39,415 bases of DNA from a virus (lineage: Duplodnaviria > Heunggongvirae > Uroviricota > Caudoviricetes). The DNA is taken from positions 1 to 39,415 of IMG/VR virus record IMGVR_UViG_2778261630_000006; one strand, written 5' to 3'. The first letter of the stretch is position 1; every line of letters begins with the position of its first letter. The notes beneath the pieces are model-generated. The model was not told the origin of the DNA and ran no database searches. It was given only the letters and a program-made list of their open reading frames with translations. The position numbers were made by a program, and so were the translations under genes. This document shows positions 4,138-37,928 of this stretch, piece by piece.

Positions 4138-4205
4138 GTCAATATTTCCTAAGACGATTTGTTGATACCGAAGCCCTGACTGTTCCCGCAGTTGGGGCTT
4201 CAACT
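4138..4205 (+). ncRNA. sar: Candidate sar-like antisense RNA across the arc-ant intergenic region
   Basis: Extended -10 (TGcTATACT, 4123-4131) on the plus strand just inside ant; 13-bp hairpin with UUCC loop at 4170-4201 immediately after the arc stop. Ends not determined. Confidence 0.35.
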
Positions 4206-15495: not shown

Positions 15496-17661
15496 TTATT
15501 GAGGTGTCTCGGCTACTCCGCCGGAGGGGATTTGAACTTGACGCATAAGATTAGCGAAATCCATGCGTTGTGAATGAGTCTGGTCTGCATCTTTAAGAAG
15601 CAGCTCAGCGTTAGCACGAGCATCTTTGCTGCGCTGTTGCTGGAATTGACCTACGAGCTTGAGGTACTCACGCAGTTCTGCCTGCTTGTCGAGGTCCATA
15701 TTGTTGAAGATTTCTGCAATCTTCGCGGCGTTGAGTTGGTTTTGGGCTTCAACCTTGGCGGCTTCAACCTGAATCTGCGCCTGTTGGTTCTCTGCCTTGA
15801 GCAATTCAGCCTGACCTTGCAGAAGGATACCCTGCGCCTGAATTTGCTCTGCTGATGGCTGCTGCGGCTGTTGTTGTGCCTGCTGTACCATCTCCATCTC
15901 TTCAGGTGTTTCTGGTTTCTTCAGCCCCATCATCACCAGTTGCTTGTTCGCGTACTCTCGCATCATCTCGACGCCTTTACCGTCAAGCAGCGTGAAGTAT
16001 TGCAGCATCAGCATCTGGAACTCTGGAGTACCTTGCGGAACCTTGGTTAGTAACTCCTGAATCTCTGCGCGGTTCTGTTCCTTCATGCTCTGGAAGGATG
16101 GCCCAACGTCCGTATAGCACTCATAGCGACCACGAATGTCGTTGAGTGTGACCACATTGCCGGACTGGTAATCGACAACTTGCGCATAGAGTTGAACGTC
16201 TTTCTCGCTTCCATCTTCAAGTGTCAGCGTTACATGACGAGGAACGTCATAAATATCGTTGACCATTGAGGCATAAATCTCGCCATCACGTCGCATTGCG
16301 GTAGCCAGGTTATCCTGGAACACGTATGTCTCAAGGTCTGCCCGCATGTTCAGTTGATTGACGGTATCGAAAGCGACCTGACCATTTGCCGCCTGCGCAT
16401 CCACACCAAGACTAGCCACCTCTTTCACTGCGTTGGTGGCAGCCTCAAGCATGTAAGCGTTGGCTTGCGGCACTTCAGGGTTTTCCATGTAGGAGATTGG
16501 ACCAATCGGCAGGTCGTTACCGTTTTCATCGGTCTTGTTCTGCAGATAGTACGGATAGTCATCATTTCCACCGTACATGTATTCGTAGCCTTCGATTTGC
16601 TCAGGGAAGAAGGTCGGTTTCTTCTTCGGTGAACGAGCAACAATATCGGCGTTGAATGACATGATCATGTTACGAAGGCGCTGACCGTCTTTCGTCAGCC
16701 TTACCACTCCTTCGTAGCACTCCTTGTCACCAGCGAATGACCATTCGCCATACACTGGAACGATTGGAATATGCTCTCCGGCTATCTTCTCGCGGTCTTT
16801 CAGTATCTGCGTGCAGGTGATGATCGACTTATACACACGCCGACGCTTCACCTTGCGCTCTGCTACCTTAATGAATCCACGATTAGCCAGGTCGTCGATG
16901 ACGTCTTTGATATCCTGCTGGTAATAGCTGACCGGCTCACCTGTCAGCGGGTCGCGGTAGATGAAGACCTTCTCTTTCTTCTCTTCGACCTCGTAATACT
17001 CAGCGACGTAGACGACATCATTCGATACCCAAGGGAACAGCCATGTATCGTTCGGATTCTGGAAAGATGGCAAGGTATCCGGATCAATACCGTAATCCTC
17101 TGCGAACTCTTTCCAGCCATTGCGTGACAAAGCGTTAATCACCGTGCAGTGCTTAGCGTCGCTCTTATCCATCTGCTTGCTATTGGCGTCCCATATGACG
17201 TGTGAGCAGGCTTCATGGATTGGAAGGCGTCGGATTACCTGATTGTTGCTTGTTGGATCGTTGTCTTCGTACTGCGTGACCAGACGCCATGCACCAACGC
17301 CGGACTCTATCTGCTCACGAACGCCAACGTTAACGGCAATCTTTGCCGTGTTATGGCGCATATCAGTACGATACATCCCCATCAACACATCGGCAGCATC
17401 AGGATTAGCGCCGTCTTTGGGTCGGAAGAGAACGTCGATAGGGTTCCGGCGCATCTCTGCGACCAGTTTCCTGACCACCGGGCGAACAACATCGAATTGT
17501 CCGCGATATTGCAGAGTCGTGTAGTTTGATAGCCAGTCATCCCATTGCGACACTCGGCTAAAATACAGGTCATTTGTCGCCTCGGTTCTGGCTTCATCGC
17601 TCGCCATCCAGTCTGCGTCAAACTTACACAGAATGGAATTGAGTCTGTTTTCGTCGGCCAT
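15496..17661 (-). CDS. gp1: Portal protein, P22 gp1-like
   Basis: 721 aa with long Gln-rich C-terminal helix, as in P22 portal. Confidence 0.95.
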
Positions 17662-19161
17662 TTAAGTTCTCCGTGCGATGGGCCTGATTGGGGCTGGTAT
17701 CTTTTTCTCTTTTGGTTTTTTGATGTCGCGCATCATTTTTGCGAAGCGGCGCATCATGTATGCATAGCGAACGGCGGATAGCACGTCGTCGTTAAGCTTG
17801 ACGATTTTCCCGTTTTCATCACGGTGATAGAGGCGGAACTCCTCAAAGAATGGCTCACAGGTGTTGAATACTTTGAAGCGACCGTCGAGCATCATGTCTC
17901 GCAATTCAGTGATGCCAGGCTCAACAGCATTACCGCCATCAGGCCATGTCGCATGCTCCTGCAACATCATAAAACCAGCGTCCGCGTACTGCCCTTTAAG
18001 CTGCTCACCGCCGCCCTTCTCATGCTGGTTTCCGTCATGAGGCCATGCGGTTGGCACTTTATGCGCCCATGATTTAACAGCTCCCCACGCCTGAACGGCT
18101 GTCTTTTCTTTCGCCTTCCACACGCGTGAAACGTAGATTGTGTCTGCGTCCTTATCCCACCAAAGCTGAACCTGCGCCTGAGGGTGATCCCATCCGAAAT
18201 CCATCCCACCAATTACGTAGAAGTGATCAGGACACTCGAACGGCTGACACTTAATCGTCTCTTCCGGTATCTGGAAGATTCGACCGCTACCCATCGTAGG
18301 AATACCGCGAGCACGCGCCTCTCTCTCATGCTCTGGATAGGATGCGATGATTTGCTCTTTCTGCTCGTCGGTATAGTGCTCAGCGTCATAGATGGTCATG
18401 TTGACCACTTTCTGCGACTTGCTGGGGTTCTTCAGGAACTTGGTAACAACGTCAGACATCCCCATCAGCGGGGTAAACGTCAGAATTGAGAATTGCCCGT
18501 ATTTGTTGGTACGGGTAAGCCCTTCGCCATAAATGCTGTATGGTGGTTCTTCGTCAAACCACACGCCGTGGATTGTGTCACCCTGCCAGCGAGCACGGCC
18601 TTGCGAGTATGGTTTGAAGTAGCAGATTGAAATGCCATCTTCAACGCCATCAGCCGTGTGATGCTTAACCAGAAGATGATCAACAAGGTTCGGAAAGAAA
18701 GGAGACTTCTTCCAGCTAATGATGTCTTCTTTCGGTATGGAACCGTAGCCAGGTTCACCATTCTCTTCGATACGACCGCACAGGATGCGTTGAGTCGTTT
18801 TGGTTACAGTCTCGTTTGTCTCTCCACCAATCCAGAAGACAACAGGCTCATAGAAACGCTTACCTTTCCACTCACCGCCATATTTACCATCAGCAGGATA
18901 GCCTTTTGTGCCCGGATAACGCCCGGTAAGGTGAAACGCGACTTCAGCAGCACCAGTAAATGACTTACCAAGCTGGTTACCAGCCATAAAACATCGCTCT
19001 GGATAGTCATGCCCGGCGTCGATGAACTCACGCTGTTTGCTGTATGGCGTAAATTCATATAGCAGGTGTGTGTTACGGTAGTTCTCTTCTTCTTCGAGTA
19101 GCTCGAGCAATTCGATTTGCTCTTCGTCGCTCAGGTTATCAAGAATCGCGTCCAGTTCCAC
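17662..19161 (-). CDS. gp2: Terminase large subunit, P22 gp2-like
   Basis: 499 aa; N-terminus [37 protein letters not shown] matches P22 gp2. Confidence 0.95.
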
Positions 19162-19627
19162 GGTTGAATAGCTCCTTGATACGAGAGCGTCGCTTATCGC
19201 GATCTCCCTTATCAGGTGTCACGTCTTCAACTTGCGACTGCTCTTTGAGGCCCAAATCACGGGCGATGATGTTAGCGTTGAGAAGGTCAGCAGCAGCGCC
19301 AGAGAATTTCTGGTCGTAGATGACCTGTTCTGCTCGCGTAACGACTTCAGATAAATCTTCTCGCAGGCGATATGTGCGCCATGTTTCAAGCGTCACATCA
19401 ATGAACAGAGTGAGTCCGGTAATGGTCATCGCTCGCATCTTGGCGATAGGCTCTTGTATCACTTCACCCTGATACGAGAACGCCTTCATCTCCCATAGCG
19501 GGTTAGCTTCCACCCACTCGAAGTATTCACAACAAGCAGCCCACAGCGCCTCAGGCGATTCGAATTTAGGGTTTCGCCCATGACTACTGCGGGCCTCCCA
19601 AAATCGGTTGCCCTTTGGTGCTGCCAT
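19139..19627 (-). CDS. gp3: Terminase small subunit, P22 gp3-like
   Basis: [46 protein letters not shown] matches P22 gp3. Start at the third codon of the listed ORF. Confidence 0.9.
19334..19359 (-). other. Candidate pac site inside the small terminase gene
   Basis: Minus-strand GAAGATTTATCTGAAGTCGTTACGCG resembles the P22 pac sequence as recalled. Confidence 0.5.
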
Positions 19628-19650
19628 ATTCATCTCACTTAGTTGTTATT

Positions 19651-20337: not shown

Positions 20338-20859
20338 TCAGCACGCGATATCGAGAGTCAACTGCAGTTGCTCGCGCCAGTACTCAACATTTGCTTCAAT
20401 AACCGGCTTATCCCATCGCCAGCGAGCCATCTCTCTTGCCCCATTGCTGGCTTTTGATTTCCGGTCATCGCGAATGCGACATGCTTGCTCATATTTCTGC
20501 TGCTCAGTCAGTTCACCGCGAAGCAGACTATCAATGTGCAGGTCGCACCACACAGCAAAACGAGCATCACACCAACGGGCAAATGCAACTGAAAGTTTTG
20601 GATGTAGCCACGTACCACCACCCCTGTCCTTTCGTGCCTTGCTGGTTTTTACATACCTCGATTGTGAGGGATGTAAAATTTGAGATTCTTTCCCGGTCAA
20701 CGCTTCGTCTAAAGCACGAACGTATTCAAGCGTTTCTGCCAAACGCATCCAGTTATCAATGCGTTTCCCAAATCTCTCAGCAACACCTGTGACGTTGATC
20801 CAACCATCAGTGTTGAAACTGACAATTTCACCTTTGTAATTAAGTGGCACGATATTCAT
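20338..20859 (-). CDS. KilA-N domain protein
   Basis: YVKTSKARKDRGGGTWLHPKLSVAFARWCD is a typical KilA-N (APSES-like) DNA-binding segment. Confidence 0.7.
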   Translation of the reverse strand: MNIVPLNYKGEIVSFNTDGWINVTGVAERFGKRIDNWMRLAETLEYVRALDEALTGKESQILHPSQSRYVKTSKARKDRGGGTWLHPKLSVAFARWCDARFAVWCDLHIDSLLRGELTEQQKYEQACRIRDDRKSKASNGAREMARWRWDKPVIEANVEYWREQLQLTLDIAC

Positions 20860-20975
20860 AACGTTTACCTACCATTTGAAATGAACCTTTGCCGCATAGG
20901 AAACCAGCCCACCGAGGCTCGCCAGCACTAACTGGTATCCTCAAAGGCCCATTCCAAAGGGGCAGGTTCGGTGTA

Positions 20976-21000
20976 AAAAACATGCGTTGCGGTACGCATT
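20976..21000 (-). terminator. Candidate rho-independent terminator downstream of Rz
   Basis: ATGCGT-loop-ACGCAT hairpin followed by a six-T run on the minus strand. Confidence 0.45.
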
Positions 21001-21005
21001 TATTG

Positions 21006-21030
21006 CAAAAAGCCCCGCATCGCGAGGCTC
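21006..21030 (-). terminator. Second candidate terminator, tandem with the previous
   Basis: GCCUCGC-GAU-GCGGGGC hairpin (one G-U pair) followed by UUUUU on the minus strand. Confidence 0.45.
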
Positions 21031-21060
21031 ATTAAATTGACTTTGTGATTTGCAAAAAAA

Positions 21061-21498
21061 TTATTTCAGGCATTGCGTCCTGATGTATTCCTGCAGGTAG
21101 TTAACCTGCGCGGTTATCTTGTCGATTCCACTTCGGAGACGGTAATAATTGAGTTCAGCATCTGCTGTAAGTCTTGGGCTTTCTCCATCGCCCATGCCGC
21201 TGGCTCCGGTCTTTGACTTTGCACAGGAGGCGGCGACTTGCAGCCGCTTACGCCCAGCAGAAACATCATCACGGAGACTTTCGATAGTCGCGTTAGCATC
21301 AGCAAGCTCCTTTGTATATCTGGCATCGAGTTCTGCTACATCACGTTGACGCTTCTGCATATCAGCGATGATGGATGTGGCTTTATCGCGCTGGTCTTTG
21401 TAGGCGATGGCGTTATCACGGTAATGATTAACAGCCCATGACAGGCAGACGATGATGCAGATAACCAGAGCGGAGATAATCGCGGTGACTCTGCTCAT
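21061..21498 (-). CDS. Rz: Spanin inner-membrane subunit Rz
   Basis: [31 protein letters not shown]... matches lambda Rz. Confidence 0.9.
21114..21299 (-). CDS. Rz1: Spanin outer-membrane lipoprotein Rz1, embedded in Rz in another frame
   Basis: Embedded ORF with signal-like segment and lipobox (LLGVSGC) followed by a Pro-rich stretch. Start ambiguous (21299 or 21269). Confidence 0.65.
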
Positions 21499-21971
21499 AC
21501 CTCAATCTCTCTGACCGTTCCGCCCGCTTCTTTGAATTTTGCAATCAGGCTGTCAGCCTTATGCTCGAACTGACCATAACCAGCGCCCGGCAGTGAAGCC
21601 CAGATATTGCTGCAACGGTCGATTGCCTGACGGATATCACCGCGATCAATCATCGGTAAAGCGCCACGCTCTTTAATCTGCTGCAGAGCTACAGCGTCCT
21701 GGCTTTCTGGAGAAAAATCTTTCAGGCCAAGCTGTTTACGGTAAGCATCCCACCAGCGTAAAAGAAGCTGGTAACGTCCGGCGGCTGTTGATTTGAGTTT
21801 GGGGTTTAGCGTGACAAGTTTGCGAGGGTGATCGGAGTAATCAGTGAATAGCTCTCCGCCAACAATGACGTCATAACCATGATTTCTGGTTTTCTGTCGT
21901 CCGTTATCAGTTCCCTCTGACCACGCCAGCATATCGAGGAACGCCTTACGTTGATTATTGATTTCCACCAT
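21495..21971 (-). CDS. R: Endolysin R (lytic transglycosylase)
   Basis: Translation nearly identical to lambda R as recalled. Confidence 0.95.
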
Positions 21972-22278
21972 CTTCTACTCCGGCTTTTTTAGCAGCGAAG
22001 CGTTTGATAAGCGAACCAATCGAGTCAGTACCGATGTAGCCGATGAACACGCTCGTTATATAAGCGAGATTGCTACTTAGTCCGGCGAAGTCGAGAAGGT
22101 CACGAATGAACCAGGCGATAATGGCGCACATCGTTGCGTCGATTACTGTTTTTGTAAACGCACCGCCATTATATCTGCCGCGAAGGTACGCCATTGCAAA
22201 CGCAAGGATTGCCCCGATGCCTTGTTCCTTTGCCGCGAGAATGGCGGCTAACAGGTCATGTTTTTCTGGCATCTTCAT
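21955..22278 (-). CDS. S: Holin S (class I, dual-start MKM)
   Basis: Translation matches lambda S107/S105, including the Met-Lys-Met dual start. Confidence 0.95.
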
Positions 22279-22575: not shown

Positions 22576-22604
22576 CAAAAAGCCCCGAGCTATTAACTCA
22601 GGGC
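22576..22604 (-). terminator. Late-operon terminator tR' (Q antitermination target)
   Basis: GCCCUGAG-loop-CUCGGGGC hairpin followed by UUUUU on the minus-strand transcript, about 30 bp downstream of the putative pR' -10. Confidence 0.65.
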
Positions 22605-22640
22605 TTTATTTAACGAGTGCATTTATCCATCGTTGAGTCA

Positions 22641-22669
22641 AATTTACCCAACTTTATTCAAAAAGTCAA
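22641..22669 (-). promoter_or_regulatory. Late promoter pR' with Q-binding region
   Basis: Minus-strand TTGACT, 17-bp spacer, TAAATT, immediately downstream of Q, as in lambda. Confidence 0.55.
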
Positions 22670-22711: not shown

Positions 22712-23335
22712 CTAACGTGTGACCGCATTCAAAATGTTGTCTGCGATTGACTCTTCTTTGTGGCATTGCACCACCAGAGCGTCATACAGCGGCTTAACAG
22801 TGCGTGACCAGGTGGGTTGGGTAAGGTTTGGGATTAGCATCGTTACAGCGCGATATGCGGCGCTTGCTGGCATTCTTGAATAGCCGACACCTTTGCATCT
22901 TCCGCACTCTTTCTCAACAACTCTCCCCCACTGCTCCGTTTTGGCTATATCAACAGCACGGCCTGTACCGTGGCAATCTCTGCATCTTGCACCCGGCGTC
23001 GCGGCACTACGGCAATAATCCGCATAAGCGAATGTTGCGAGAACTTGCAGTACCTTTGCCTTAGTATTTCCTTCGAGCTTTGCCACACCACGGTATTTCC
23101 CCGATACCTTGTGTGCAAATTGCATCAGATAGTTGATAGCCTTTTGTTTGTCGTTCTGGCTGAGTTCATGCTTACCACAGAATGCAGCCATTCCGAATCC
23201 GGCTTGTGATTGCGCCATCCCCATAGCAGCCATCACATCAGTACCGGAAAGAGAGTCAGAAGCCGTGGCCCGTGGTGAGTCACTCATCATCGGGCTTTTT
23301 GGCGAATGAAATTTGGCTACGCTTTCGAGTCTCAT
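22712..23335 (-). CDS. Q: Late antiterminator Q
   Basis: 207 aa; translation essentially matches lambda Q as recalled. Confidence 0.95.
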   Translation of the reverse strand: MRLESVAKFHSPKSPMMSDSPRATASDSLSGTDVMAAMGMAQSQAGFGMAAFCGKHELSQNDKQKAINYLMQFAHKVSGKYRGVAKLEGNTKAKVLQVLATFAYADYCRSAATPGARCRDCHGTGRAVDIAKTEQWGRVVEKECGRCKGVGYSRMPASAAYRAVTMLIPNLTQPTWSRTVKPLYDALVVQCHKEESIADNILNAVTR

Positions 23336-26269: not shown

Positions 26270-26299
26270 ATAAAAAGGCCTGCGATTACCAGCAGGCCT
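26270..26299 (-). terminator. Rho-independent terminator between replication genes and nin region
   Basis: AGGCCTGC-loop-GCAGGCCT 8-bp stem followed by UUUUUAUUU on the minus strand. Confidence 0.65.
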
Positions 26300-37820: not shown

Positions 37821-37873
37821 GCCGATAAAGGTGTTTGAGATAAAGATGAATATCGGCAATGAATAACAATCCT

Positions 37874-37900
37874 CGCACTCGCGGGGATTTTTTTTATCTG
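37874..37900 (+). terminator. Rho-independent terminator
   Basis: CCTCGC-ACTC-GCGGGG hairpin (one G-U pair) followed by eight T. Confidence 0.65.
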
Positions 37901-37901
37901 A

Positions 37902-37925
37902 ACTCGCTACGGCGAGTTTTGTTTT
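37902..37925 (+). terminator. Second tandem terminator-like hairpin
   Basis: ACTCGC-TACG-GCGAGT followed by TTTGTTTT. Confidence 0.45.
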
Positions 37926-37928
37926 ATA

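Follow-up and report, generated by a model that had tools for sequence, protein, structure and literature searches.

The spacer between the Rz spanin gene and a KilA-N accessory gene in the viral record IMGVR_UViG_2778261630_000006 (positions 20860-21060, minus strand) carries on its late-gene strand a structured leader RNA, for which the comparison of related sequences shows a conserved predicted fold with two covarying pseudoknots. We refer to the whole stretch of DNA that was analyzed, 39,415 nucleotides (nt) long, as the window; it is a P22-like or lambdoid prophage, with HK544, Emek, and Sf6 as its best phage matches. An earlier note on this DNA had described two hairpins in the spacer, here T1 and T2, as tandem terminators, and had pointed to a similar pair, T3 and T4, upstream of the xis-int block. 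All four hairpins with their T-runs are present, at the positions it gave or a few bases off, and the first pair does belong to the late-gene (minus) strand, where it separates the lysis cassette from the accessory and terminase genes. The reading of this pair as tandem terminators stands for T1, which is a genuine conserved intrinsic terminator after Rz. It falls for T2, since the T2 hairpin is kept in relatives that have no U-run and its loop covaries with a distant bulge, making it a helix (P0) of the leader RNA. The leader is a widespread, unannotated, doubly pseudoknotted RNA family whose structure has not been described before. The explanation that best accounts for the observations jointly, and to which we would give an even chance, is that T1 is a terminator and T2 the P0 helix of a cis-acting pseudoknotted leader that gates the expression of accessory genes.

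The predicted fold and its covariation

The largest feature of the interval, missed by the earlier note, is a long irregular hairpin of ~100 nt (20867-20967, minus strand). The late-strand RNA of positions 20860-20975 folds into it with a free energy (dG) of -49.2 kcal/mol (z -4.4, 0 of 200 shuffles as stable; all hairpin stabilities are given as dG and z against 200 shuffles each). The opposite strand reaches only -33.9 kcal/mol (z -1.7), and several conserved G-U pairs of the leader would there become C-A mismatches. The whole module, comprising spacer, P0, linker, helices P1-P5, Shine-Dalgarno (SD) sequence, and AUG, extends over ~150 nt (20855-21011, minus strand), scores 175.6 bits with our covariance model, and is present once in the window in a search with that model.

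All elements of the predicted fold are on the minus strand. The P0 hairpin (20982-20999; AUGCGU, loop ACCGCA, ACGCAU) comes first, followed by a linker and by the long hairpin, which consists of P1 (20961-20967 with 20867-20873), the 17-base-pair (bp) P2 (20942-20958 with 20875-20891), P3 (20938-20941 with 20898-20901), and P4 (20930-20936 with 20903-20909). The apical loop contains P5, a mini-hairpin of 3 bp predicted by RNAalifold (GCU-GGCG-AGC, 20917-20926). The first pseudoknot, PK1, would pair CACCGA in the linker, directly 5' of P1 (20968-20973), with UCGGUG (20910-20915), a segment of the apical loop that immediately precedes the P4 3' arm. The second, PK2, would pair CCGCA of the P0 loop (20988-20992) with UGCGG in a 6-nt bulge between P3 and P2 (20892-20896). 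The SD sequence GGUAGGU is the 3' strand of P1 and, together with the KilA-N AUG, occupies 20857-20873.

We scored this fold model (P0, P1-P4, PK1, and PK2, the pseudoknots having first been seen by eye) on an alignment of 68 distinct sequences. In the whole model 90.5% of cells are paired, versus 34-41.5% when partners are slid by one to three columns. Cells with double-sided changes number 116, against 39.5 +/- 10 in column shuffles, none of 500 of which reaches the observed value. Pairing is complete (100% of cells) in PK1, where A-U and G-C alternate in 48 and 19 sequences and C-G and U-A in 47 and 20, and it reaches 97.9% of cells in PK2. The nested helices behave likewise: P4 alternates ACCAG/CUGGU with GUCAG/CUGAC (the latter in 33 sequences), P2 shows a U-A to G-C change in 10 sequences, and the P0 stem becomes GCGC/GCGC in relatives through a compensated U-A to C-G change (13 versus 52 sequences). 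P5 has C-G in 47 sequences and G-C in nine (phi80 type, GGU-GGCG-ACC), and is missing in short-loop variants. RNAalifold, run on 59 sequences, independently recovers P0 together with P2, P3, P4, and P5, with double-sided changes in 23 of 32 pairs. The apical hairpin of the single-sequence minimum-energy fold (GCUGG/UCGGU) was rejected: it is broken in variants with UCGACG, in which the PK1 pairing is kept, and PK1 therefore replaces it in the model.

Each pseudoknot is kept through at least 5-9 sequence states, and PK1 through at least nine across subtypes. For PK1 these include CACCGA/UCGGUG, CGUCGA/UCGACG, CAUCGA/UCGAUG, CGAGAG/CUCUCG, CCCGAG/CUCGGG, AGAGAG/CUCUCU, CUCAGAA/UUCUGAG, CCGAGAG/CUCUCGG, UCCUAGAG/CUCUGGGG, and GAAAG/CUUUC; for PK2, CCGCA/UGCGG, UCGCA/UGCGA, UCUCAC/GUGAGA (phi80), UUCACC/GGUGAA, UCACAC/GUGUGA, and CCGAAU/AUUCGG. 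The register is constant throughout, the PK1 5' strand abutting P1, its 3' strand abutting the P4 3' arm, and the PK2 3' strand following P3. In the phi80-type rows, where the covariance-model alignment shifts loop columns by one, pseudoknots were read by eye and with a best-helix script.

Two coding readings of the same DNA were tried and discarded, namely the 47-aa open reading frame (ORF) at 20840-20983 and the long start of P22 ORF201. Relatives carry 1-nt indels, and the substitutions are compensatory rather than synonymous.

Upstream of P0 lies T1 (21007-21029, minus strand), a stem-loop GCCUCGC-GAU-GCGGGGC at 21011-21029 with five U at 21007-21011 (dG -14.1 kcal/mol, z -3.5, 0/200 shuffles as stable). 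HK544, ES18 (two records), phi80, and epsilon34 have a rho-independent terminator annotated at the equivalent place, and in HK97, HK106, HK75, mEp235, and many others, too, Rz is followed by the first 59 nt of the spacer. A terminator-like hairpin with a U-run is found at most 60 nt upstream of P0 in 141 of 146 leader instances, with at least 12 different stems.

Distribution, downstream genes, and the P22F fragment

The leader is found in much-studied phages, among them P22, phi80, ES18, epsilon34, and Stx1 and Stx2 phages. Over 99 nt, its block at window positions 20875-20973 has 98% identity with P22 39530-39628, a segment immediately before rha; with ES18 the identity is 75%, and compensatory changes are visible. 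An apical 28-mer matches exactly at 120 or more loci in viral contigs, and an apical 22-mer was found in 22 species-representative genomes. The leader is carried by 836 of 5426 complete Escherichia coli genomes (~15%), with up to five copies per genome; RefSeq has at these copies either no annotation or an over-extended Rha ORF. The range covered is the Enterobacterales, since a protein-seeded search for distant Rha loci gave only relatives with at least 91% identity. At this site of the window, Rfam 15 gave no family at the gathering or E-value threshold, the only matches being isrJ (18.5 bits versus 37) and rimP (18 versus 47), both of which cover the terminator part; nor was there an Rfam match at the leader in P22, phi80, epsilon34, a Hafnia phage, and a Klebsiella phage.

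A covariance model of the P22 type that contains only the nested helices finds leaders in phi80, epsilon34, Sf101, SE16, and Stx, Klebsiella, and Hafnia phages, with E values from 1e-19 to 3e-8. These phi80-type leaders keep both predicted pseudoknots with entirely different sequences (CGAGAG/CUCUCG and UCUCAC/GUGAGA in phi80), so that a divergent subfamily confirms the fold deduced by alignment. In phi80 itself (leader at 1562-1708 of record L154), T1 is followed by GCGC-AUCUCAC-GCGC, then by the long hairpin, and then by the SD and AUG of rha. Late in infection phi80 makes a small hairpin RNA that is a substrate of RNase P, the M3 RNA, reportedly described by Bothwell and coworkers in 1976; it may correspond to the phi80 rha leader. 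As a separate observation, a group of Stx2a-converting phages (Stx2_EH0505, record L163, ~375-400, and ~20 similar records) has a phi80-type leader without P0. These leaders retain the complementary bulge GUGAGA and form a natural variant without PK2.

The position of the leader is as constant as its fold. In 146/146 instances the apical motif is followed after 51-56 nt by the AUG, which is also the site of the mosaic junction with the variable gene. The genes that follow belong to unrelated families: KilA-N (with or without ORF11CD3 or P63C), Phage_pRha, HNH_3 with AP2, and GIY-YIG (in epsilon34). All 78 close homologs of one Rha that have upstream sequence carry the leader, in three subtypes. 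Second copies in the same contig precede other accessory genes, including a membrane protein and a protein that CharmingMan annotates as tellurite resistance. In Klebsiella phage RothD and E. coli phage CharmingMan, the leader lies between Q (with tRNAs in RothD) and an HNH gene, which ties it to the late operon and not to Rz.

We also noted contigs with two leader copies of different subtypes, each before a different gene (HNH-like, membrane protein, KilA-N with P63C, tellurite); the copies are at L028 1041-1195 and 3753-3908, L016 1098-1241, L153 6827-6958, L068 1990-2125, L128 2745-2890, and L167 3062-3191. The leader has probably also caused errors in start-codon annotation. P22 rha (ORF201; BK000583, record L003 1246-1317) is annotated from 39575, inside the leader, with the AUG common to relatives at 39644 (178 aa), and ORFs named "Rha family transcriptional regulator" by PGAP are extended over the leader in the same way. 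Both are probably misannotated starts.

Part of this RNA has been seen in infected cells. Small-RNA sequencing of P22 infection found an 89-nt RNA, P22F, in infected Salmonella only and with "no known function", documented by read coverage, reverse transcription PCR validation, and a hairpin drawing (Naaz et al. 2026, PMC13397905). Its reads come from the late strand, and it is abundant as a discrete species of ~89 nt and enriched in vesicles (PMC13397905). P22F corresponds to P2-P4 of the leader: it starts within P2 and lacks the 5' third of the conserved module. In our literature searches the leader sequence appeared only in that paper, which is without P0, the two pseudoknots, the covariation, the phi80-type homologs, and the association with cassettes, and no earlier description of the motif turned up.

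Possible roles of the leader and of T1

T1 is located inside a single late operon, downstream of Q and of pR' and tR', so that transcription toward the terminase genes must read through it. Reading of intra-operon terminators by polymerase modified by Q or N is established lambda biology, and we infer that a Q-modified polymerase would pass T1 in this way. Intra-operon terminators are recognized and common in P22-like phages, with roles described as unknown (PMC8022706).

Function, throughout, is something that we infer. In the proposal that we favor, T1 would stop polymerase that was not modified by Q at pR'/qut, and the leader with its downstream gene would be made only on antiterminated late transcripts. 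The leader would act as a portable head for accessory cassettes (KilA-N, Rha, HNH-AP2, GIY-YIG, and others) in lambdoid late operons. Its P0 and the long bent hairpin P1-P5, locked by PK1 and PK2, would gate translation initiation in cis through a P1/PK1 stack that would hold the SD by its GG. In 56-65 of the 68 sequences this GG is paired with the CC adjacent to PK1, and the stack could therefore hold the SD; because of this pairing and the fixed spacing to the AUG we favor control of translation initiation. In a second role, once the A/U-rich stretch that separates T1 from P0 has been cut, the leader may serve as a nuclease-resistant 5' domain for the downstream message, which would explain the abundance of P22F. 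The P0 of this E. coli lineage, which gained a U6 tail, may leak some termination, a secondary effect.

Several points weigh against this view. A pseudoknot helix of 5-6 bp is reached by a median of 5-9% of loop shuffles in a single sequence; the significance per sequence is thus weak, and the argument draws instead on the many states that share one register. Some of these states, and the cells that were counted, are not independent of one another. Exact-match seeds taken from the apical loop supplied most of the sequences, and apical conservation is therefore partly by design. P1 is poorly conserved beyond the CC/GG pairs, one subtype shows no obvious PK2, and P0 is deleted in some Stx2a phages. 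Both pseudoknots together with the full 27-bp hairpin require a sharp bend, and PK1 and PK2 could instead be alternative, mutually exclusive pairings. Finally, the predicted mean unpaired probability of the SD is 0.48 in 83 leaders, compared with 0.44 at 25 other start sites of the window. Simple occlusion of the SD as a conserved property was accordingly dropped, as nested ensemble folding does not support it.

The absence of consistent SD occlusion fits a different role, which we consider unlikely and yet the strongest of the alternatives, namely that of a pure punctuation or stability element of the mRNA. RNase E or RNase III would cut between T1 and P0 or inside P2, T1 would shield the 3' end of the lysis message and the knotted domain the 5' end of the downstream one, and translation would play no part. 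A terminator hairpin and an A/U-rich spacer are nearly always found upstream of the leader, the stable P22F fragment begins inside P2, and a helix of 17 bp such as P2 is long enough for RNase III. A simple hairpin would suffice for this purpose, however, leaving two covarying pseudoknots and the conserved P5 loop without explanation, and both the fixed SD/AUG spacing and the mosaic junction exactly at the start codon point to initiation.

It is less probable again that T1 and T2 are two functional tandem intrinsic terminators, passed only by Q-modified polymerase, with an ordinary 5' untranslated region behind them. Each does consist of a stem-loop and a subsequent U-run on the late strand, the general frequency of intra-operon terminators in P22-like phages is in keeping with such a pair, and the lengthening of P0 to 6 bp with 5-8 U in the lineage of the window resembles selection for a terminator. 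The T2 hairpin is weak, however, with a marginal dG of -6.9 kcal/mol (z -1.5) that 18 of 200 shuffles equal. Its U6 run (20975-20980, minus strand, after a G) is specific to the lineage: such runs of 5-8 U are confined to one lineage of E. coli that includes the window. Aligned with the window, P22 and ES18 have the same P0 hairpin with the same loop ACCGCA, followed by ACAAUAAC instead of Us. There is no U-run after P0 either in the phi80 type, in Hafnia and Klebsiella phages, and in other E. coli phages, where a ACAAUAAC-like sequence takes its place. Of the 22 copies in Enterobacterales genomes (Enterobacter, Citrobacter, Kluyvera, Kosakonia, Yersinia nurmii, Brenneria, Symbiopectobacterium, and others), 21 keep P0 without a U-run; the 22nd, on a contig labeled as a Nanosynbacter metagenome-assembled genome, is identical to the E. 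coli type. The P0 loop covaries with the bulge ~100 nt downstream, which makes T2 the P0 helix of a larger pseudoknotted leader RNA, and the remaining 110 nt are far from ordinary. Judged on the aligned relatives, hairpin and U-tract are conserved together at T1, T3, and T4 and not at T2, which resembles lambdoid terminators in superficial shape only and is conserved as a structural helix is. In this E. coli lineage the hairpin may add some termination as a secondary effect.

A little more doubtful still is the possibility that the leader gives rise to a trans-acting small RNA or a decoy, with P22F directed at host or phage targets or at a host factor such as a defense protein or a nuclease. 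The discrete, abundant, vesicle-enriched species of ~89 nt would suit such a role, as would an apical loop almost invariant across genera and the up to five copies per E. coli genome. Against it, the leader is always at a constant distance from a start codon and has no 3' terminator of its own, and short-loop variants do without the conserved apical segment. The strands of the pseudoknots can take any sequence that keeps them complementary, so they are internal pairings rather than seed regions.

That conservation acts on the DNA, as a recombination boundary, a protein site (e.g., for integration host factor, IHF), or a promoter of the accessory gene, is very improbable: the block does lie at a mosaic junction, with the same leader before different genes, and the record notes of ES18 and phi80 tie a rha phenotype to IHF, but the two strands differ strongly in fold energy, the helices include G-U pairs, compensatory changes between segments 60-100 nt apart lack a rationale at the level of DNA, the reads obtained from P22-infected cells are of the late strand, and a pattern scan of the spacer gave no late-strand match for a promoter.

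Returning to a cis-acting leader that controls initiation, we note several relatives in design. Like the preQ1-II and SAM-II riboswitches and the T4 gene 32 leader, it has a compact pseudoknotted fold 5' of the SD, a closing helix that involves the SD, and stable leader fragments. It is much larger than these, with a 27-bp bent hairpin, serves functionally mixed accessory genes rather than a metabolic regulon, and has no known ligand or protein. The P1/P7 c4 RNA and P22 sar are also phage RNAs just upstream of genes of the Ant/KilA/Rha class, and c4 acts through two short complementary segments (5-7 nt) on the same transcript. The leader differs from both in that there is no Rfam C4 or sar match at the site and in that its two short helices are internal tertiary contacts, not pairings with ribosome-binding sites. 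The put RNA of HK022 is likewise a cis-acting, two-stem structured RNA near terminators in a lambdoid operon; put lies upstream of the terminators that it suppresses and next to promoters, whereas the leader is downstream of a terminator and adjoins a start codon.

A fold with two covarying pseudoknots usually marks a specific molecular function. It is possible, though we would not count on it, that the leader represents a new class of doubly pseudoknotted sensor RNA, riboswitch-like or protein-binding, that gates the translation of toxic or defense accessory cassettes (Rha, KilA-N, HNH, GIY-YIG) in late operons of lambdoid and P22-like phages, Shiga-toxin phages among them. According to the record notes of ES18 and phi80, rha affects growth in IHF-deficient hosts, a subject on which Henthorn and Friedman reportedly wrote in 1995; if the leader is such a sensor, it could be the cis element behind the harm that rha does to phage growth in these hosts. 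The description of the family opens three subjects to study: the means by which lambdoid phages regulate the swappable accessory genes that stand between those for lysis and packaging, the identity of the abundant P22F, and whether the toxicity of rha in IHF mutants works via the leader. Its covariance model provides a marker for accessory-gene cassettes in prophages.

The second pair of hairpins and the setting of the leader

The second pair, upstream of xis and int, is present on the plus strand and was said to be similar to the first; it is not similar in kind. T3 (37868-37895, with the hairpin AAUCCUCGC-ACUC-GCGGGGAUU at 37868-37889, followed by U8) is, on the evidence of alignment, the known lambdoid terminator tL4. 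It has a dG of -13.1 kcal/mol (z -6.7, 0/200 shuffles) and aligns with the tL4 features of HK022 (X51962) and 434 (M60848), the stem of the latter differing by compensating changes. The orf55, xis, and int ORFs follow T3, placing it inside the N-antiterminated pL operon, which is on the plus strand and ends in these three genes. T4 (37900-37926), whose hairpin GAACUCGC-UACG-GCGAGUUU at 37900-37919 is followed by UUUUGUUUU, is by the same comparison a conserved neighboring hairpin (dG -11.9 kcal/mol, z -4.6, 0/200 shuffles); HK022 and 434 differ from it at a single A/G position only and have it unannotated. Phages of the lambda type match the window from 37863 onward.

T1, T3, and T4 resemble lambdoid intra-operon terminators (tR', tL3/tL4, and the post-Rz terminators annotated in HK97-like, P22-like, and phi80 genomes): the stem is GC-rich, the loop short, a U-run follows, and the site is intergenic, within operons that Q- or N-modified polymerase reads. 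T1 and T3 are also sequence homologs of annotated terminators. Unlike T2, each of the three is far more stable than expected by chance and is conserved in relatives. Sites that fit a generic terminator pattern are not enriched in the late region of 12 kb (16, versus 12.3 +/- 3.1 in shuffles). Significance therefore rests on hairpin stability and conservation, and pattern counts carry no weight. The scan missed T1; our guess is that the first U of its tail pairs into the stem, leaving fewer than the five Ts that the scan requires. The terminators are ordinary and nothing new, one of each pair being already known and T2 having been misassigned.

The late genes of the window are on the minus strand. 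In late-gene order, Q (22712-23335) is followed by a pR'-like promoter (TTGACT-17-TAAATT, 22641-22669) that was found by pattern scan and matches the HK544 annotation of pR' and qut, and by the tR' terminator downstream of Q, ~35 nt past pR', with a 13-bp stem (22579-22607, also from the pattern scan). Then come the holin (21955-22278), the endolysin (21495-21971), and Rz (21061-21498), the final gene of the lysis cassette, identified from the ORF list and the HK544 and Sf6 annotations. Past the spacer, the KilA-N gene served by the leader (20338-20859; Pfam KilA-N, E 8e-22) precedes the small terminase (19139-19633), the large terminase (17662-19161), and the portal (15496-17661).

A promoter-like site on the plus strand (TTGACT-16-AATTAT, 21037-21064) is opposite the late genes and points into Rz, suggesting a possible antisense transcript; with only 9 of 12 matches, it may be due to chance. 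Elsewhere in the window, a sar antisense RNA at 4139-4205 on the plus strand (Rfam RF00262, 73.4 bits versus a gathering threshold of 43) marks the P22-type immI region (ant/arc/mnt) of the prophage. A further strong terminator-like hairpin (AGGCCTGC...GCAGGCCT with a T-run) is found at 26276-26299 (minus strand); it belongs to the early-right operon and precedes the nin/Q region.

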